From: an uncultured archaeon
Lineage (GTDB): Archaea > Thermoproteota > Nitrososphaeria > Nitrososphaerales > Gagatemarchaeaceae
Direction: 5' to 3'
NCBI GenBank assembly: GCA_963799775.1
Contig: CAWCYD010000003.1
Location: 32,001-96,000 of the forward strand
Length of the DNA: 64,000 nucleotides
How positions within the stretch are numbered: position 1 is the stretch's first letter; every line of letters begins with the position of its first letter. Positions 21,557 to 36,807 of this stretch are shown in pieces. Made by a program: the position numbers and the translations under genes. The notes under the pieces are model-generated. The model had not been told where the DNA came from. It saw nothing but the letters and a program-made list of their open reading frames with translations, and did not search any database.

Positions 21557-21928
21557 TTGGCAATCTTTGGCGACGTCGCATCCGTCTTCATGATGGGTGT
21601 GGTGGGTGTTCTCTTCACCTCGATAATGCTCATCGTGCCCCGCATCCTGGGCCCTAAGCACCCCAACCCCATCAAGGGCCTTCCTTTCGAGGCCGGGCAG
21701 GTGCCAAGAGGCAGGGGCAAGATGCATTTCATGATGCAATACTACGCCTACCTCCTCATGTTCGTCGTCTTCGACGTCATGGCGATGTTCCTCTTCGCAT
21801 GGGCCGCCGCGTATCAGCCGCTCGCGCTCGGACCGTTGTCCAGTTGGATGATCCTGATCTTCGTGGGGGCGCTCCTCGTCCCGATGGGCCTCACGGTGCA
21901 CATGGCGGGGAAGAGAGAGATTTGGTAG
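21557..21928 (+). CDS. nuoA: Complex I subunit A
   Basis: PFEAGQ, QYYAYLLMFVVFDV; three TM segments. Confidence 0.92.
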   Translation: MAIFGDVASVFMMGVVGVLFTSIMLIVPRILGPKHPNPIKGLPFEAGQVPRGRGKMHFMMQYYAYLLMFVVFDVMAMFLFAWAAAYQPLALGPLSSWMILIFVGALLVPMGLTVHMAGKREIW

Positions 21929-23679
21929 CGGCCGCGCCCGTTCCGAAGACCGGCGAGACCAACGTCCTCGTCGGCAAGGTCAATGAGATCCTCCAAGATG
22001 CCATAGGGGCGCCGCTGCGCTACGTGGCGAACTGGGGGCGCCTCTACAGCCTGTGGCCCGTGCACCTTGAAACTGCATGCTGTAGTGTTGAAGTCGGGGC
22101 CGCCGCTGGCTCGAGGTTCGACGCCGAGCGCTTCGGGGTCTTGGAGGCTTTTGGTTCCCTCCGGCAGTGCGACCTGATCATTGTGATGGGGACCGTGACC
22201 AGGAAGCTCGCTCCCAGGCTCAAGCTGATCTACGACCAGATGGCTGAACCGAAGTGGGTAGTGGCAATGGGAGCTTGTAAACGGGGTGACTCGATGGTCT
22301 ACACGCCTACGGGCCTACGCAGAATTGACGAGATTCAACCCGGTGAGACGGTCTTCTCATACGATGAAGCCGCGAAGCAAGTAGTCAATGCAAAAGTCGC
22401 AGCCAGAAAGGACCAGGGAGTGCGACCGGTCTTCAGAGTCCGCGCTGGTTCTTATGAATCGGTGGCTACAGAAAATCATCCGTTCGCCGTATACGAGCGA
22501 ACTTTGTCGAGGAAATGGGTGGCCTACAAGTCAATGCTCGGCATGGTCGAAGAAGGCTTTACCCTGAAAGAGCTCTCGCCTCTTCTAGGAATTGGTGCAA
22601 GGAGTCTCTCCTATTGGAAGAAACACCCACCTTCAATGTATGGACTAGATCTAAACTGGAAGCACGTTTGCGAACTCAAGGAAGGAGACCTTCTTGTTAC
22701 CTATTCTCAAGCAGTGGAGGGAGCGCCGTTTCCGATTCAATATCACCACGAAGGCAGGTTTCGAAAGCATGTCAGAATACCCGATTCCGTTGATGACGCT
22801 CTCGCATGGCTAGTCGGTCTTTATCTTGGAGATGGCTGGAAGGACAGTCATCGAATAGGCTTCTCGCTCATGGAGAAGGATCCTTCGAGAGCTGAGCTTG
22901 TTAGGGTAATCAAGGAACTCTTCGGGATATCGCCTCACGAAGGCAGACAAGTGTCCGTTTGGTCAAGTGTGATTGCGGGGATGTTCAGAGAATCGCTCCA
23001 ACTCGAAGGTGATGTTTACACAAAGAGAATACCGAGTTGGGTCTATACCTTACCATTGTCATCTGTCTTGAGTTTCCTCACTGGTATGATCGAGTCAGAC
23101 GGGTATGTTCAAGAGCAAGGTTTCGCCCAAATCTCGTCTGCCAACAAAGAGTTGATGCTTGATTTGGTGGAGCTTTGTCATTATCGTGGACTCCACGTTG
23201 GCGGTGTCTTCGAGAAAGAAAAGGAGAACGTCTTAGAAGGAAGACAACTAAAGACGGTCGAATATGTCGTGAGCTTCCCGATGTCGCTGATTGCACGACT
23301 TCCTCTTCATAGGTCTGACTACCTGCGGAGGGTTAAGACTGCGGTTCGGGTATTCGACGGAACATCCTTGCTTAAGACAAGTCATGCGGGAATTGGACTG
23401 CGACGTCTAACGTCAATAGTCCCGAGAGGGCGCGATTCAGTCTATGACATAGAAGTCGAGGGCCATCACAACTTCTTCGCCAACGGACAGCTCGTCCACA
23501 ATTGCGCCATCACCGGCGGACTATACTACGACTCGTACAACGTCCTGAGGGGCATAGACGACATCATCCCCGTCGACGTCTACGTGCCCGGTTGCCCTCC
23601 GCGCGCAGAGGCCCTGATGCAGGGCATCGCGCTGCTCCAAGAGAAGATCCGGCACTCGACGAGCCTCCGCGGGACATGA
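21922..23679 (+). CDS. nuoB: Complex I subunit B containing an intein
   Basis: ETACCSVE, AMGA|intein|CAITGG, YVPGCPP; TTG start overlaps nuoA end. Confidence 0.95.
   Translation: MVAAAPVPKTGETNVLVGKVNEILQDAIGAPLRYVANWGRLYSLWPVHLETACCSVEVGAAAGSRFDAERFGVLEAFGSLRQCDLIIVMGTVTRKLAPRLKLIYDQMAEPKWVVAMGACKRGDSMVYTPTGLRRIDEIQPGETVFSYDEAAKQVVNAKVAARKDQGVRPVFRVRAGSYESVATENHPFAVYERTLSRKWVAYKSMLGMVEEGFTLKELSPLLGIGARSLSYWKKHPPSMYGLDLNWKHVCELKEGDLLVTYSQAVEGAPFPIQYHHEGRFRKHVRIPDSVDDALAWLVGLYLGDGWKDSHRIGFSLMEKDPSRAELVRVIKELFGISPHEGRQVSVWSSVIAGMFRESLQLEGDVYTKRIPSWVYTLPLSSVLSFLTGMIESDGYVQEQGFAQISSANKELMLDLVELCHYRGLHVGGVFEKEKENVLEGRQLKTVEYVVSFPMSLIARLPLHRSDYLRRVKTAVRVFDGTSLLKTSHAGIGLRRLTSIVPRGRDSVYDIEVEGHHNFFANGQLVHNCAITGGLYYDSYNVLRGIDDIIPVDVYVPGCPPRAEALMQGIALLQEKIRHSTSLRGT
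22276..23502 (+). mobile_element. 409-aa intein with LAGLIDADG homing endonuclease and HTH insert
   Basis: Starts CKRGDSMV; block B TENHPF; LVGLYLGDG and FLTGMIESDG; block F VYDIEV..HNFFANG; ends VHN followed by Cys+1. Confidence 0.95.
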
Positions 23680-23709: not shown

Positions 23710-24300
23710 TTGCAGCCCAATAACTCCGAGAAGAAGGATAGCGCCCTAGACAAGCAGCCCGTCCCGCGCGCCTCGTCACCGATCGGTGCGAGCACAGCCA
23801 TCCCAGCCAGGGGGGCGGCACCTGCGCAACCCGAAAACAGCAGGGCCTTGGACTTGGCCGACGAGATCGCCGCCAGGTTCCTGCTCGCGAAGGTCGACTA
23901 CGCGAGGCCACGAAGGGTCAAGGTGACCGTCCCACCGGACAAGATAAAGGCGGTCGCGCTCTACGTCAGGGACGTCCTCGGCTTCGACCACATCGAGGTC
24001 GTCGGAGGGACCGACTATCCGCAGCAGAACGAGTTCGAGGTGATCTACTTCGTCGGATGCGTCTCCAACCCCGGGCAAGAAGACATCGTGCTCCAAATCG
24101 CAGAGCGCGTGAAGAAGGACGACGCCGTCGTGCCTTCGCTCGTCGACGTCTGGACCGGGACAGAGTACCACGAGCGTGAGACGTTCGAGATGCTCGGGAT
24201 CAGATTCGAGGGCCACCCTGACCTTAGGAAGATACTCCTGCCGGAGGACTGGAACGACATCCCTCCCCTGCGGAAGGACTACACGAACCCGGGTCATTGA
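23710..24300 (+). CDS. nuoC: Complex I subunit C
   Basis: YHERETFEMLGIRFEGHPDLRKILLPEDW..PPLRKD. Confidence 0.92.
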   Translation: MQPNNSEKKDSALDKQPVPRASSPIGASTAIPARGAAPAQPENSRALDLADEIAARFLLAKVDYARPRRVKVTVPPDKIKAVALYVRDVLGFDHIEVVGGTDYPQQNEFEVIYFVGCVSNPGQEDIVLQIAERVKKDDAVVPSLVDVWTGTEYHERETFEMLGIRFEGHPDLRKILLPEDWNDIPPLRKDYTNPGH

Positions 24301-24362: not shown

Positions 24363-25439
24363 ATGGCCGTCTCGCTGGGCCCTCAGCATCCGGGCGCGGG
24401 GCACTTCCGGATCAGGCTCTGGCTGGACGGCGACTACTGCGTGAAGGCCGACCCCGATCCCGGCTATGTCCACAGGGGCGAAGAGAAGATGTGCGAGTAC
24501 AAGAACTACATCCAGAACGTCCCGCACCTGGAGAGGCCCGTCATCCTCGACAGCTCGGGCATCTTGTTCGCCTACTCCCTCGCGGTCGACCAGCTCATGA
24601 ACAACAAGCTCCCCCCTCGGGCGGAGTACCTTCGCGTCATCGCCGCGGAGCTGGACAGGATAATCTCCCACGAGTACTACCTCGGGATCCTGGGGCTCTT
24701 CGCGGGCCACACGACTATGATCACTTGGGCCATGGGCGACAGAGACTTCTTCATCGACATCGCGGAGAGGCTCACCGGGGCGCGCGTCACCCACGCCTAC
24801 ATCATCCCCGGCGGGGTCAGGAACGACATGCCAGAGCACCTCCCGGAGAAGGCATTCCAGACCTTCGACTGGTTCGAGAAGAGGATGGACGACTACGAGA
24901 AGATCTTCTTCAGGAACCCGATCTGGGAGGAGAGGTCGAAAGGGATCGGCGTCCTGACCAAGGAAGACGCGATAAGGCTGGGAGCCACCGGGGTCGTTCT
25001 GCGGGCGTCGGGGGTCGCCCACGACACGAGGCGAGCCGAGCCATACAGCGCGTATCCGGACTTTGACTTTGGGGTCGCCTCTCTGAAGGAGGGAGACGTC
25101 TGGTCGAGAGCGTACACGGCTCTCACTGAGATGAGGGAGTCGGTGAAGATACTGAGGCAGGCCTTCAAGAACCTGCCCCCGGGGCCGGTGAGGTTGAAGC
25201 TGGGGCCCCAGCCGCGCGTCCCCCCAGGTGAGACTTACGCGCGCACAGAAGCCGCCCACGGCGCGATGAGCTTCTTCGTTGTCAGCGACGGCACCCCGCG
25301 GCCTTACCGGGTGAAGATAGGGACCGGCTCCTTCAGGAACATGCGGGTGATCCCCCACCTGCTCAAGGGCGTCCACATCGCGGACATCCCTGTCGTCTAT
25401 TGGGGCCTGAATTATTGGCCAGTCGAAGCGGACCACTAA
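24363..25439 (+). CDS. nuoD: Complex I subunit D
   Basis: GPQHPGAG, GYVHRGEEK, AELDRIISH, TGARVT; no NiFe CxxC ligands. Confidence 0.93.
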   Translation: MAVSLGPQHPGAGHFRIRLWLDGDYCVKADPDPGYVHRGEEKMCEYKNYIQNVPHLERPVILDSSGILFAYSLAVDQLMNNKLPPRAEYLRVIAAELDRIISHEYYLGILGLFAGHTTMITWAMGDRDFFIDIAERLTGARVTHAYIIPGGVRNDMPEHLPEKAFQTFDWFEKRMDDYEKIFFRNPIWEERSKGIGVLTKEDAIRLGATGVVLRASGVAHDTRRAEPYSAYPDFDFGVASLKEGDVWSRAYTALTEMRESVKILRQAFKNLPPGPVRLKLGPQPRVPPGETYARTEAAHGAMSFFVVSDGTPRPYRVKIGTGSFRNMRVIPHLLKGVHIADIPVVYWGLNYWPVEADH

Positions 25440-25465: not shown

Positions 25466-26647
25466 CTAATCAGGCTCTAAATGTAATTTAAGGTCTGCTT
25501 TGACCTCGTAAGCCGCTTTTGCCTGCGATATATATCTGTCCCTTTCGTCGCGAATTCGTCTAACAAGCTTGTCCCATTTCACTATTACGTCATATCGTCG
25601 CCTATGGCCAAAAAGCGAGTCGTACTTGAGCGCGAGCACAACCTTCCGCACTTTCTCGGGGTGCCTCAGCCGCATGAACTGCATCATTCGTTTACGTCAT
25701 CGAATCTCCAGACTGCTATTCGCCAAATGTGTTCGCCAGAATTGTACACACCTCTTTTGAGCGCATCTTCTCGGTTTACCTTCGTTCTCTGGAGATTTAC
25801 GGAGAATCCATACTGAGAGAGGCTGTGAGCGATTTGAGACAGCAAATTGAAATTTGTATTCGGAATCAGGCAGTTCAAATTCATCCGCATGCCGCTTTCG
25901 ATGCAAGTAAACGGTTCCCTCAGCATCGAAAAATCCGGCAAGAAAATCGAAGAACAAATCCTCATCTGCAATCATTTCCGTCGAGAGTCTGTTGACCTCC
26001 AGGAGGAACGAGTAAGTGTCATCCAGGTCACAGTCGAGAGCCCATTCAAATCCGGTCAGGGGTGACTTTCTGGGGTATTCATAGATTGGACCATGGGAAG
26101 CGAACAAGGTTCGGAACAACCTGCTCATTGAGGGGTGAGTTGTGCTCAGCCGAACCCTCACTGCGCGTCCATGCCTGATCGACCAAATGTCCCCTACGGC
26201 AAGACCAATTATGTAGGCCATCTCGTGCCGGTCACCGGAGAACGGCACCTTCTGGAATTTCGATACCGCCTTGATCTGAGCTTCCACCTTGTCCCTGATC
26301 TCGACCCGTCGCTCGCGAAGGTGGGCGAGGACAGTGTTTGGAGTCACTTTGCCTCCTGCAACTTTTTTCAGCGACTCGCCGTTCTGATATCTCCTTACCC
26401 ATTCGTCCACCATCGATGGCGTGACCTTCCTCACGTGCTCCGCGGGGTCCCTTCGAGCGATCCCGTTCCTCTTGAGATGATAGAGGACCGTCGATTCCGC
26501 GGTCTTCGGGCTCGAATATCTCAGTCCGTACACAACCGCTATCTTCGCCGCGGAGAGCTTCTGATCGACATAGAGGCGCTGCAAGTCTTCTCTGTTCGGC
26601 GGCCAACCCAGCGAAGTGCCGCCGCTTCCTTCGTCCCAATCGGCCAC
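25466..26647 (-). pseudogene. Free-standing LAGLIDADG endonuclease with N-terminal HTHs (two frameshifts)
   Basis: AYIIGLAVGD and FLAGFFDAEG; continues in 25684..25971 and 25466..25687 (LRHPEK) frames. Confidence 0.75.
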
Positions 26648-26944: not shown

Positions 26945-28440
26945 ATGTTGATTCCCCCGCAGCGGGCGACAGGAGTTCTGATGAGCATCACATCCCTCCC
27001 GTCGAAGTTCGGCATAGGCGACCTCGGACCGTCCGCGCTCAGGTTCGCCGACCTCCTCTCAGAGTCAAGACAGCGTTACTGGCAGGTTCTCCCCCTGACC
27101 CCGACGGGCCCGGGCAACTCTCCCTACAACCCGACGTCCGCGTTCGCGGGGAACACGCTCCTCATAAGCCCCGAGGTGCTCTACGCGGAGAGCCTCCTCG
27201 AGGAACTCCCTGGGGCACCAAGGAGCGAACAAGAACAGAGCCGGGTAGATTACACGGAAGTAATCGCCTTCAAGAGAGAGGTCTTGGACAGAGCATTCGA
27301 GCGATTCAAGGAGGCTCGGTCCAGCCAGTTCGAAGAGTTCTGCGCATTGAACTCCGGTTGGCTGGAATCCCACTCGCTCTACGTCGCCGTCAAGGAAGAA
27401 AGAGGTGGGAAGCCGTGGTACGAGTGGCCTCAGGGCCTTCGGGACGGGGAACAAGACGCCGTCGCGGAGGCGAGGTCGAGGCTTTCGGATCCCGTTGAAA
27501 GGGAGAAGTTCGCCCAGTTCGAGTTCTTCAAACAGTGGCAGGGACTGAAGGAATACTGTTCCGGACTCGGAATAAGGCTCGTGGGTGACGTCTCATTCTA
27601 CGTCGCCCTCGACAGCTCTGACGTCTGGTCGAACAGGCGCCTGTTCAAGCTCGGGAGCGAGGGTCGTCCTTCATTCGTTGGAGGCGTCCCCCCTGACTAC
27701 TTCAGCGAGACGGGCCAGCTTTGGGGGAACCCCGTCTATGACTGGGAGCGGCTGGAGGGCGAGGGCTTCGACTGGTGGATGAGGCGCCTGCAGCACACGC
27801 TCGACCTCTTCGACATCACCCGTCTAGACCACTTCAGGGGTTTCGTCGCCTTCTGGGAGGTACCTGGAGACGCGAAGACGGCGATTTCAGGACGATGGGT
27901 GGATGCGCCTACCGACGCGTTCTTCGAGAAGGTCAAGGCCCGCTTCCCTTCGATGCCGTTCATCGCCGAGCCAACCTGGGCGTCATCACCCCTGACGTGA
28001 GGGCCGTGATGAGAAGGCTGGACCTTCCTGGGATGTACGTGCTGCTCATGGCCTTCGACTCAGGCCCTGACAACCCGTACTTGCCCCGCAACTACTCCCC
28101 GAACTCCGTGGTCTACACAGGAACCCACGACACGAACACCGTCAGAGGTTGGTTCAGGGACGAAGCGAACGCCAGACAAAAGAAGAGGCTCCTCGAGGTC
28201 ATGGGGAGGGAACTCTTTGAGGAAGAAGCCAGCTGGGAGTTCATCTGCCTGGCGTTGAACTCCGCGGCAACACTGAGCATCGTCCCCACTCAGGACATCC
28301 TCTCGCTCGGATCCGAGGCGAGGATGAACCTTCCATCGACCTCCGAAGGCAACTGGGAATGGAAGGTGACGACGGATCAACTCTCGCCTGACGCCTTTCG
28401 AAAGCTGGGCGAAGAGACGCAGGCCGCCGGACGCCGTTGA
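26945..28440 (+). CDS. malQ: 4-alpha-glucanotransferase GH77 (frameshift near 27975)
   Basis: ITSLPSKFGIGDLG, WQVLPL, GVPPDYFSETGQLWGNP, RLDHFRG, YTGTHDT, RMNLPS. Confidence 0.93.

Positions 28441-30989: not shown

Positions 30990-31002
<13 letters not shown>
28453..31002 (+). CDS. glgP: Alpha-glucan phosphorylase GT35 (two compensating frameshifts, about 30290-30380)
   Basis: YFSMEF, YSGGLG.VAGD, HMNEGH, FARRFATYKR, EACGTSGMK; LDGWWAEAY lies in an alternative frame. Confidence 0.93.
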
Positions 31003-33180
<2,178 letters not shown>

Positions 33181-33184
<4 letters not shown>

Positions 33185-34407
33185 AAAGTCGACCCGCGGA
33201 GAGGTCCGTCCTTACGATAAACTGCGGTTCCTCGAGCATAAAGTTCGCTCTCTTCGACGTTGTCGCCGGCAGTCCATCACGCCGGATTATCGATGGCGAG
33301 ATCGCCAGGATAGGATTACGCGACACTACCTTGACCGTGAGAGACGTTGACCGGACGAAGAACCTCTCCCGACGAATCAGGGCGGCGGACCATGCTCAGG
33401 CGGCAGCGACTCTGACAGAACTGCTCGATAGGACGAGCCGAGACATGCCCCTAGGTGCCATCGGTCATCGTGTGGTGCAAGGGGGGCCGAAGTACCACGA
33501 GCCGCGGCTTATCACCAAGAAGGTGCTCTCCGACCTCCGAAGGCTCATCCCGTTGGATCCCGAGCATCTCCCCAGCGAGATACTGCTAATCGAGGTTCTT
33601 GGCAGGCGCCTCCCTGGCCTTCCCCAGGTAGCTTGTTTCGACACGGCCTTCCACCACGACCTGCCCCGCGTGGCCCGGATTCTGCCGATTCCTCGCCGTT
33701 TCGAGGCGCGAGGCGCGAGGAGGTACGGGTTCCATGGCATCTCCTATGCGTTTCTGATGGAGGAGCTGGCGCGGCTCGCAGACCCGTCGGCCGCTACCGG
33801 CAGGGTCATACTTTGCCATCTCGGGAACGGTGCAAGTCTTGCGGCTGTCCGCGCAGGCAAGTCCGTCGACACATCGATGTGCCTCACCCCGGCTGCGGGA
33901 CTGCCCATGAGCACGCGCTCGGGAGACATCGATCCCGGGCTCTTGTCCTATCTGGCGCGCACCGAGAAGATGAGCATCACAAAGTTCCAAGACATGGTCA
34001 ACTTCCGATCGGGTCTCATCGGGATCTCAGAGACGAGCTCTGACATGCGAGACCTTCTGGCCCTCGAGACGAAAGACACGCGGGCCGCCGAAGCTGTCGC
34101 ACTCTTCTGCTACCAGGTGAAGAAATGGATCGGGGCCTACGCAGCGGCGCTCGGTGGGCTGGACACCCTGGTGTTCGCCGGCGGCATAGGAGAGAACTCG
34201 GACGTCGTCCGTGCGAGGGTCTCTGAGGGTCTTGAGTTTCTGGGGATAGTTCTCGATCCAAAGCGCAACGAGGCCAACGAGGGCGTCATCTCCGGCGATT
34301 CGAGCCGTGTCACCGTGCGCGTCATCCACACGGACGAGGAGCTGATGATCGCGAGGACCGTTTATAGCATCCTCGGCATCGGCGGAGGAAACCGCCCGAG
34401 GGGATGA
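33181..34407 (+). CDS. ackA: Acetate kinase
   Basis: [47 protein letters not shown]. Confidence 0.95.
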
Positions 34408-36807
34408 TTCTGACGACAATGAAGACCAGCGCGCTTTCTCCCGATCTGCTGAAGCGGATCGACGCCTATTGGCGCGCGGCCAACTATCTCTCGGTCGGCC
34501 AGATCTACCTCTCAGACAACCCGCTGCTGAAGCAACCGCTCAAACTGGCGCACGTGAAACCGCTCGTGGTCGGACACTGGGGCACGGTGCCCGGGCAGAA
34601 TTTCATCTACGTGCACCTCAACCGCGTCATCAGAAACTTTGACCTCAACATGTTCTACATTTCGGGTCCGGGGCACGGCGGCCCCGCCGTGATGAGCAAC
34701 GTCTACCTCGAAGGCAGCTACAGCGAGGTCTATCCGAACATCAGCGAGGACGAAGCTGGGATGAAAGCGCTGTTCAAGCAGTTCTCATTCCCCGGCGGGG
34801 TCTCCAGCCATGTCGCCCCGACCACGCCCGGCTCGATACACGAAGGCGGCGAGCTAGGCTACTCTCTCAGCCATGCGTTCGGCGCGGTCTTCGACAACCC
34901 AGACCTGATCGTCGCGTGCGTCATCGGCGACGGGGAAGCGGAGACCGGCCCCCTCGCGACTGCATGGCACTCGAACAAGTTCCTAGATCCGGTCACCGAC
35001 GGGGTCGTGCTGCCTATACTGCACCTCAACGGTTACAAGATCTCCAATCCCACCGTCTTGGCCCGGATCAAGCAAGAGGAGTTGGAGGAGTTTCTCAGGG
35101 GCTGCGGGTGGGAGCCTCACTTCGTCGAAGGGGAAAGACCGGACAAGATGCACGAGCTCATGGCCGCCACCCTCGACGAGGTGATCCGAGACATCCTTCG
35201 AATCCAAAGGAACGCTCGAAGCAAGGATGACGCGTCCCGGCCACGGTGGCCCATGATCGTACTGAAGACGCCCAAGGGTTGGACTGGGCCGAAGGTCGTC
35301 GACGGCGTCCGAGTCGAAGGGACGTTCAGGTCGCATCAGGTGCCTCTCCTCGTCGGGGCAGAGCACCCCGACCATCTAAAACAGCTTGAAAGGTGGATGA
35401 AGAGCTACAGGCCGGAAGAGCTCTTCGATGAGCAGGGACGCCTCATGCCGGAGCTGGCTGAGCTCGCACCCGAGGGTGACAGGAGGATGGGGTCAAACCC
35501 CCACACGAACGGGGGGCTTCTGCTCCGGGCACCTCCGCATGCCAGACTTCCAGGACTACGCCGTGGATGTGCTCTCTCCCGGCTCCGTCACTGCCCAAGA
35601 CACTTCCGTGCTCGGCAGATTCCTGCGGGATGTGGTGAAGCTCAACCAAGACACGCGCAATTTCAGGATCTTCGGTCCCGACGAGACGCTCTCGAACCTG
35701 CTAGGGGCGGTCTTCGAGGCGACCAACCGTCAGTGGGACGCTAAGCTAGAGAGGGACGACGAGTTCCTCGCGCCCTCCGGGCGCGTCGTCGACTCGATGC
35801 TCAGCGAGCACCAGTGCGAGGGCTGGTTGGAGGGATATCTGCTCACAGGCAGACACGGCGTCTTCAACTGCTACGAGGCCTTCATTCACATCATCGACTC
35901 GATGTTCAACCAGCACGCCAAGTGGTTGAAAGTCACGTCGGAGCTCCCATGGCGCCGAAAGATCTCTTCGCTCAACTACCTGCTCAGTTCCCACGTCTGG
36001 CAGCAGGACCACAATGGCTTCACCCACCAGGACCCTGGCTTCCTCGACCACGTGATCAACAAGAAGGCTGACATCGTGCGCGTCTACCTTCCCCCGGACG
36101 CGAACTGCCTCCTCTCCATCTTCGATCATTGTCTTCGGAGCCGGAACTACGTGAACGTCGTCGTGGGTGGCAAGCACCCTCTCCCTCAATGGTTGAGCAT
36201 GGACGCGGCGATTGCCCATTGCACCGAGGGGATCGGCATCTGGCAGTGGGCGAGCAACGACCAGGGCACAGAGCCTGACGTCGTCCTAGCCTGTTGCGGA
36301 GACGTCCCCACGCTCGAGACACTTGCGGCAGCCTCGATCCTACGCGAACATCTCCCTCGCTTGAAGGTAAGGGTAGTCAACGTGGTCGACTTGATGAAGC
36401 TACAATCGCCCAGCGCGCATCCGCACGGCCTCAGCGACCCGGACTACGACTCTCTTTTCACGAAGAACAAGCACATCATCTTCGCCTTCCACGGCTATCC
36501 TTGGCTGATCCATCGCCTTACCTATCGTCGGACGAACCAAAGCCTGCACGTCCGCGGCTACAAAGAAGAAGGGACCATAACGACCCCGTTCGACATGAGG
36601 GTGCAAAACGACCTCGACCGTTTCCATCTCGTCCAAGACGTGATAGACCGAGTGCCCGACCTGGGTTCCCAAGGCGCCTACCTCAAACAGCAGATGCAGG
36701 ACAAGGTCATCGAGCACAAGCGGTACATCAGCAGTCACGGTCAGGACATGCCGGAGATCCGGAACTGGAAGTGGGATCCCCTGCAGTTGAAGCCTCCGTC
36801 AACTTGA
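34404..36807 (+). CDS. xfp: Xylulose-5-P/fructose-6-P phosphoketolase (frameshift near 35530)
   Basis: [50 protein letters not shown]. Confidence 0.95.

Follow-up and report, generated by a model that had tools for sequence, protein, structure and literature searches.

Why is the gene for NuoB, a core subunit of respiratory complex I, interrupted in an uncultured soil archaeon by 409 in-frame codons placed immediately before a cysteine expected to bind iron–sulfur (Fe–S) cluster N2, and is the interruption a selfish element, a regulatory device or a relic? The locus lies in a stretch of 64,000 nucleotides (hereafter the window; positions 32,001 to 96,000 of contig CAWCYD010000003.1, GenBank assembly GCA_963799775.1) from a member of the Gagatemarchaeaceae (Nitrososphaerales), and all unprefixed coordinates below refer to the window. 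The reading that we favor, at a probability of roughly 0.88, is that the insert is a class-1 LAGLIDADG intein in the only complex-I nuoB of this genome, that it sits before the third N2 cysteine, and that it is self-splicing, selfish and probably mobile.

The open reading frame (ORF) list of the window holds a single open frame at 21799-23679 (+) that spans both the nuoB exteins and the insert. The start of nuoB is likely the TTG codon at 21922, which overlaps the stop codon of nuoA; the frame from that codon (21922-23679, +) encodes a precursor of 585 residues, intein included, and a 585-residue database protein (P0002) is identical to the precursor started in this way. Two NCBIfam profiles, nuoB_fam (188.2 bits, cut-off 142.7) and PRK06411 (192.5 bits, cut-off 116), each match the precursor in two stretches, and Pfam Oxidored_q6 (6.2e-22) likewise falls into two parts, on either side of Intein_splicing, LAGLIDADG_3 and Hom_end. 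Sequence and structure alignment define an N-extein of 118 residues (21922-22275, +), which carries the tandem N2 cysteines (LETACCSVE) and ends in VVAMGA, and a C-extein (23503-23679, +, stop codon included), which opens with Cys+1 (CAITGG) and holds the PGCPP cysteine. Between them the intein (22276-23502, +), delimited by profiles, an AlphaFold2 model and Foldseek, runs for 409 residues without a stop from Cys1 (TGT) to His408-Asn409 (AAT). It is in frame between ...EPKWVVAMGA and CAITGG, with CKRGDSMVYTPTG (CKRGDSMV...) as its N-terminus and GQLVHN as its C-terminus, after which the host sequence resumes as CAITGGLYYDSYNVL...PGCPP. The first-pass annotation of this DNA had placed a 409-residue intein at 22276-23502, between MGA and CAITGG, and the translation, Pfam and NCBIfam bear these coordinates out exactly.

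Within the intein, Pfam recognizes Intein_splicing (5.4e-11) and, over their cut-offs at residues 264-314, LAGLIDADG_3 (4.3e-6) and Hom_end (7.6e-5); NCBIfam intein_Cterm matches the C-terminus. Residue conservation was read from an alignment of 36 same-site sequences, 46-66% identical to the intein studied, which also served for the AlphaFold2 model. The block A nucleophile Cys1 is conserved in all 36 rows, as is His68 of the block B TxxH motif (T65-E-N-H68), the Thr65 of which is found in 35. Asp391, His398, Asn399, His408 and Asn409 are invariant (36/36), and Cys+1 is present in 35 rows, the remaining row being gapped at that position. Invariant residues and the intein_Cterm match mark the C-terminal Hint lobe with its blocks F and G (VYDIEVEGHHNFFANGQLVHN; 23392-23502, +). 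The first LAGLIDADG motif (LAWLVGLYLGDGW, residues 176-188; 22801-22839, +) has its Asp186 conserved in 32 of the 33 rows with the column, and the second (LSFLTGMIESDGY, residues 265-277; 23068-23106, +) its Asp275 in 32 of 34. The Cys1, the His-Asn terminus and the two LAGLIDADG motifs named in the first-pass annotation are thereby all accounted for by conserved residues. The AlphaFold2 model has a mean predicted local distance difference test score (pLDDT) of 89.4, and its best Foldseek matches are bifunctional inteins (TliVMA, 7qsu, 1e-23; PI-PfuI, 1dq3, 2.7e-17; PI-SceI, 7e-17). Further matches are mini-inteins of the Hint fold, such as NpuDnaB and Mtu RecA, and endonuclease folds (I-DmoI, I-Tsp061I and I-AniI) at ~1e-4. 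Chance does not account for a resemblance that extends to protein families, a fold and hundreds of homologues. Judged by its sequence, the element is a real and complete class-1 intein with a predicted two-motif LAGLIDADG homing endonuclease domain, and it is very probably splicing-competent.

An extra helix-turn-helix (HTH) had also been annotated at first pass, and this claim stands in part. The structural element is there: the model places a three-helix, HTH-like insert in the N-terminal Hint lobe (residues 79-116; 22510-22623, +), its helices at 79-92, 97-104 and 108-116 all with pLDDT above 90, and the 49-residue insert folded alone reaches 93.5. The family assignment is weak. Pfam HTH_23 matches the insert at E 0.041, under its cut-off, and Foldseek with the lone insert returns mainly HTH domains (HipB, Hin/serine recombinase, IstA), all with E of at least 0.26. 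The insert is kept in the three mini-inteins of the alignment, which are without the endonuclease domain. On the model, an extra HTH in the intein is plausible, not proven.

What does the intein interrupt? The two exteins align jointly as one NuoB/NDUFS7 against solved complex I structures, their best solved relatives being NDUFS7/NuoB chains (1e-41 to 1e-33). All four conserved NuoB cysteines are present, as the ACC pair, MGA|C and PGCPP; a fifth cysteine (LRQCDL) is not conserved in the complex I alignment. The tandem Cys53 and Cys54 map to residues 85 and 86 of the Y. lipolytica NUKM chain (6gcs_K), and in a passage of PMC8042128 C85 and C86 form the tandem pair of the four cysteines through which NDUFS7 binds N2. 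Cys+1 of the intein is the third of the four conserved cysteines (MG[AS]C), and because the four NDUFS7 cysteines bind N2, its identification as an N2 ligand is supported; the first-pass proposal that the +1 nucleophile is the conserved, cluster-binding MGAC cysteine agrees with this. As is usual for inteins, the insertion site combines a conserved stretch of target DNA with a +1 Cys that is obligatory. Because the thiol that makes the attack would later bind N2, and because the insert separates two ligand-bearing segments, splicing would have to precede both cluster insertion and assembly with NuoD, and NuoB would, by inference, be unable to bind N2 beforehand. Splicing would then gate the maturation of NuoB, in the trivial sense that it comes first.

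The favored reading would proceed as follows. Translation would yield the 585-residue NuoB precursor, in which Cys1 would undergo an N-S acyl shift; Cys+1, which would later ligate N2, would attack the resulting thioester through its thiol, cyclization of Asn409 would free the intein, and an S-N shift would leave an ordinary NuoB (...VVAMGA-CAITGG...) of 176 residues, as counted from the TTG at 21922. Folding, uptake of the [4Fe-4S] cluster N2 and association with NuoC and NuoD would be open only to the spliced NuoB. Once released, the intein would probably cleave DNA site-specifically through its two-motif LAGLIDADG domain, aided by the HTH-like insert; its target would be intein-less nuoB, at the conserved sequence ATGGGnGCn|TGYkCnATHACnGG, and repair would copy the intein into the break.

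Among 5.8 billion proteins searched, 195 long relatives of NuoB were retrieved, and the best 120 clusters among them were classified. Two insertion sites emerge: site b, that of the intein studied, and site a, which lies between the tandem cysteines (LETAC|C...HN|CSVEVGA). Site b is the only one occupied in 36 clusters, site a the only one in 51, and both are occupied in 22; the other 11 are truncated or unclear. Counting in four truncated entries, a site-b intein is present in 62 of the 120 clusters, and counting in two entries with an unclear site b, a site-a intein in 75. Wherever source names are given, they are Nitrososphaerales, Nitrososphaerota or Thaumarchaeota. Whole-precursor identity to the same-site relatives is 53-87%. 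The site-b inteins P0003, P0006 and P0041, from Nitrososphaerota metagenome genomes, interrupt NuoB at the same point (MGA|C...HN|C(A/S)ITGG), measure 403-411 residues and have the same domain order; proteins of this type are named 'MAG TPA: LAGLIDADG family homing endonuclease [Nitrososphaerales archaeon]'. Six of the site-b clusters are mini-inteins of 185-248 residues, with differing deletion edges. The first-pass annotation rated the novelty of the insertion too highly, same-site inteins being abundant in public metagenome proteins, some of which the Joint Genome Institute (JGI) already labels 'NuoB-like Fe-S oxidoreductase/intein/homing endonuclease'.

The site-a intein (P0070 and P0085; LETAC|C...VVHN|CSVEVGA) shares the host protein, likewise has an N2-ligand cysteine at +1 and likewise carries a LAGLIDADG endonuclease. 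It differs in its length of 375-379 residues and in its absence from the genome studied, where, compared with other site-b carriers, site a is empty. We considered whether the two inteins form one family and rejected this: only their endonuclease domains align, at 27% identity over 132 residues (E 4e-7). The NuoB of soil Nitrososphaerota is a recurrent target of two unrelated inteins, each with a different N2-ligand cysteine at +1. One carrier of both inteins stands apart (P0061; locus L020, G097:C27, in a genome 59% complete): it reads PGRPPGP where others read PGCPPR(A/P), so that the fourth N2 cysteine is missing; it may be either a divergent paralogue or a NuoB that lacks N2.

Among genomes, the intein is sporadic. 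Of the 401 genomes in a sample of the class, 371 score above the NuoB family cut-off, and four, namely the host genome (G000), G164, G393 and G097, hold full-length relatives of the intein. The relatives in G164 and G393 are 55% identical to the intein studied, and that of G097, which carries both inteins, 40%. (Five genomes flagged as unpublished, G327, G231, G365, G132 and G283, count toward the class totals, but no specific claim uses them.) The host family comprises 12 genomes, three with the site-b intein, three with the site-a intein (579-residue frames) and six with neither; the six empty alleles read ...AMGA|C(A/S)ITGG. Within genus g2, two of the nine genomes carry the site-b intein, three the site-a intein and four none. 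A sample of 401 genomes across the phylum added a same-site NuoB intein in two genomes of other families, G551 (46% identity) and G465 (34%). The copies in G393 (L019, C11) and G465 (L036, C1) have a garbled, low-complexity region at the first LAGLIDADG domain, with the frame open and the splicing blocks intact, which looks like endonuclease decay by way of compensated frameshifts. A third match in the phylum sample (L037, G575:C26) is a SufB-like protein with an intein of its own (...GAQYE|CLTGDT...VIVHN|SEVVYHN...), the endonuclease half of which is 32% identical to that of the NuoB intein.

The host organism was also found, at ~2x coverage, in a metagenome run (X1) of one soil study, where the exact contigs include one that lies inside the intein (23269-23419). 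Three other contigs of this run match the N-extein from 22086 and are preceded by ...SNAVVHN|CS, the end of a site-a intein; site-a carriers therefore occur in the same soil sample as the host organism.

Evidence for mobility comes from composition and from the comparison of intein with extein. The intein has a G+C content (GC) of 0.498 and a GC at third codon positions (GC3) of 0.516, against 0.625 and 0.773 for the N-extein and 0.649 and 0.877 for the C-extein, in line with the earlier remark that it is visibly richer in A+T than its exteins. The inteins of G164, G393 and G097, whose hosts are of similar GC, have GC3 values of 0.69-0.75, and among the four genomes compared the copy studied shows the widest gap in composition between intein and host, with the lowest GC relative to its host. 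Extein and intein identities do not track each other. Among the relatives compared, the closest extein (P0070, 95.5%) has site b empty and site a occupied, and the closest intein (P0003, 85.6%) belongs to a host with 90.9% extein identity. In P0039, P0041 and P0042 the exteins are 92.6-94.3% identical and the inteins only 53%. Over 51 full-length pairs, the correlation between intein and extein identity is 0.50. The low GC3, an intein identity that does not follow that of the extein, and the decayed or deleted endonucleases of its relatives argue for a selfish homing element. The intein of this genome would probably be a recent arrival in its lineage from a donor of lower GC, and the whole pattern is consistent with a classic homing cycle of invasion, fixation, endonuclease decay, and loss or re-invasion.

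Several observations weigh against the reading of a splicing, mobile intein. Lysine stands at position 2, where 29 of the 36 aligned sequences have Leu, and asparagine at position 67, where 33 of 36 have Asp. Splicing and DNA cleavage are both predicted from conserved residues. The identity mismatch amounts to 8-16 differing residues in a short extein (176 residues) and is not a formal tree test, and the low GC3 could stem in part from weaker codon selection on the intein and not from recent arrival. Among public read sets, no RNA run holding this sequence was listed. In the soil study, at the ~2x coverage of run X1, no contig crosses an intein-extein junction and none shows a joint that skips the intein, an outcome that is neutral as to expression and to empty alleles in the population.

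Could the intein instead be a checkpoint, with the redox- or metal-sensitive splicing suggested at first pass? A disulfide between Cys1 and Cys+1, or a metal held by the junction cysteines and the block B histidine, would retain the precursor and so tie complex I to redox state, iron or zinc. Both junction residues are indeed cysteines, and the thiol of Cys+1 must stay free up to the splicing reaction; in other inteins, splicing is known to respond to redox state and to zinc. The mycobacterial DnaB intein is described as a sensor of oxidative stress (PMC6195587), and zinc inhibition of splicing is described in PMC7360933. The persistence of mini-inteins without an endonuclease in six of the classified clusters would also suit a retained function, but is likewise expected because an intein in an essential site is hard to delete precisely. 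The Cys1/Cys+1 pair, a generic prerequisite found in many inteins, offers nothing specific to that of NuoB, and no observation here supports regulation by redox state or metals. A conserved regulator would moreover be expected to be fixed in a clade, whereas the intein is found in four of the 401 class genomes and divides genus g2 two, three and four ways among nine genomes. Because of this patchiness within the genus, and because the endonuclease is often decayed or deleted, the element is better taken as selfish than as a conserved regulator, and we consider a checkpoint in NuoB improbable. The broader proposal, that inteins on Fe–S ligands delay the maturation of Fe–S enzymes under oxidative or metal stress, seems to us equally doubtful. 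If it were true, and if oxidation or an untimely binding of metal slowed splicing, respiration would be under a hitherto undescribed form of post-translational control.

The gene context of nuoB is that of complex I. The contiguous order nuoA-B-C-D comprises, besides nuoB, nuoA (complex I subunit A; 21557-21928, +; Pfam Oxidored_q4, 6.8e-20), nuoC (23710-24300, +; Complex1_30kDa, 5.4e-34) and nuoD (24363-25439, +; Complex1_49kDa, 1.7e-78). The nuo genes covered, nuoA to nuoD and nuoH, are split: sugar-metabolism genes follow the first four, and nuoH comes 49 kb downstream on this contig (G000:C3:105983-106870, outside the window, are the coordinates given for this observation). The host genome consists of three contigs totaling 2.47 Mb and is rated 81.67% complete, and within these contigs a second complex-I nuoB was not found. 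The only other NuoB-like match, on contig 2, was ruled out as a spare complex-I nuoB, as it adjoins a hydrogenase-type large subunit and is frameshifted. At this locus (L003, G000:C2:364754-367936), a small subunit resembling NuoB is joined to a ferredoxin-like part (~846-1713 of the locus, +); a frameshift around 1435-1604 interrupts it, and a further NuoH-like gene lies close by.

Three further genes of the window are each found in two overlapping ORFs, as after a frameshift: a 4-alpha-glucanotransferase (GH77; 26945-28440, +), an isoamylase/GlgX-like gene (30990-33096, +) and a phosphoketolase (XFP N, then XFP plus C; 34404-36807, +). Given an assembly of three contigs and 81.67% completeness, indel errors are the likely cause of these split genes, with real decay as the alternative. 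The least probable reading, and a very unlikely one, is that of a dead relic, defective in splicing or in endonuclease activity and either lying in a nuoB pseudogene or persisting as a tolerated immobile element: relatives do show endonuclease decay, and the split neighbors indicate that gene decay or assembly errors occur in this genome, but the 585-codon frame is intact and retains every splicing residue and the aspartates of the two LAGLIDADG motifs, the incomplete genome yielded no spare complex-I nuoB, nuoA, nuoC, nuoD and nuoH are intact, and the unameliorated GC3 argues for a recent arrival and not an old relic.

Directly after nuoD lies a patch of low GC (0.44-0.50) with a free-standing ORF of 316 residues (25697-26647, -) that has a weak N-terminal HTH match and two LAGLIDADG-like motifs (YIIGLAVGD... 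and DFLAGFFDAEG...). As a derivative of the intein endonuclease it was rejected, the match being E 0.004 over 52 residues and the Pfam match under its cut-off (E 0.01); it may be a separate homing-endonuclease-like gene.

The NuoB intein has company in its genome. The Intein_splicing profile matched 16 stretches, and NCBIfam identifies the hosts of other inteins as the beta subunit of a 2-oxoacid:ferredoxin oxidoreductase, a FlaI-like ATPase, a family-B DNA polymerase, aIF2-gamma and aIF5B/IF-2 (loci L005-L016 on contigs C1 and C3). The aIF5B/IF-2 gene appears split over two frames, and two further intein-matching proteins of 845-851 residues have exteins without an assigned identity. The oxidoreductase intein (L006:1345-3420, +; ~1857451-1859526 of G000:C3) is inserted at WCPG|CVTGDT...VGACGN|CGDFG, inside the N-terminal CxxC motif of its host, and ends in Gly-Asn, not His-Asn. 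This CxxC motif presumably binds a [4Fe-4S] cluster, and the oxidoreductase intein would be the second in the host genome on a probable Fe–S ligand cysteine. NuoB is accordingly not the sole metabolic or Fe–S intein host of the genome.

Inteins are concentrated in proteins of replication, repair and recombination, according to PMC5874633, and Thermoproteus tenax is reported to have none. A search of the literature for inteins together with NuoB, complex I, Thaumarchaeota or Nitrososphaerales, mostly at the level of titles and abstracts, found no NuoB or complex I intein. The main text of the intein census of Novikova et al. (2016) does not contain 'NADH', 'respirat', 'iron-sulfur' or 'Thaumarchaeota', though hosts of this kind could be entered in its supplementary tables. 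As an intein host, NuoB is unusual and apparently unpublished; the element itself is ordinary and widespread in soil Nitrososphaerota.

What the locus contributes is the addition of respiratory complex I to the hosts of inteins and, with a splice nucleophile that would itself be an Fe–S ligand, a clean natural case of the rule that inteins occupy conserved sites at residues which the host cannot spare. Every state is found in nature: the empty allele, site a only, site b only, both sites, the mini-intein and the decayed endonuclease. For this reason the NuoB inteins are well suited to studies of the homing cycle and of redox- or metal-sensitive splicing. For annotation, inteins account for the over-long 'NuoB' proteins of 550-960 residues in Nitrososphaerota bins.

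Among known systems, the closest in fold are TliVMA and PhoVMA (7qsu, 7qss, 7qst), PI-PfuI (1dq3), PI-SceI (1vde, 1lws) and PI-TkoII (2cw7), with Foldseek values of 1e-23 to 3e-14. They share with the NuoB intein a Hint domain divided by a two-motif LAGLIDADG endonuclease, as well as Cys1, TxxH, His-Asn and the +1 nucleophile. Sequence identity is only 14-17%, and their hosts are an ATPase, a polymerase and a ribonucleotide reductase, whereas the host here is NuoB; the extra DNA-binding-like module of the NuoB intein is the small three-helix insert at residues 79-116. The SufB intein, in a protein of the Fe–S assembly system, is likewise tied to Fe–S metabolism, according to PMC8891592. With the conditional inteins of mycobacterial DnaB and SufB, the NuoB intein has in common the cysteine nucleophiles at the junctions; stress sensitivity has been measured in the DnaB and SufB inteins, whereas for the NuoB intein it is hypothetical.

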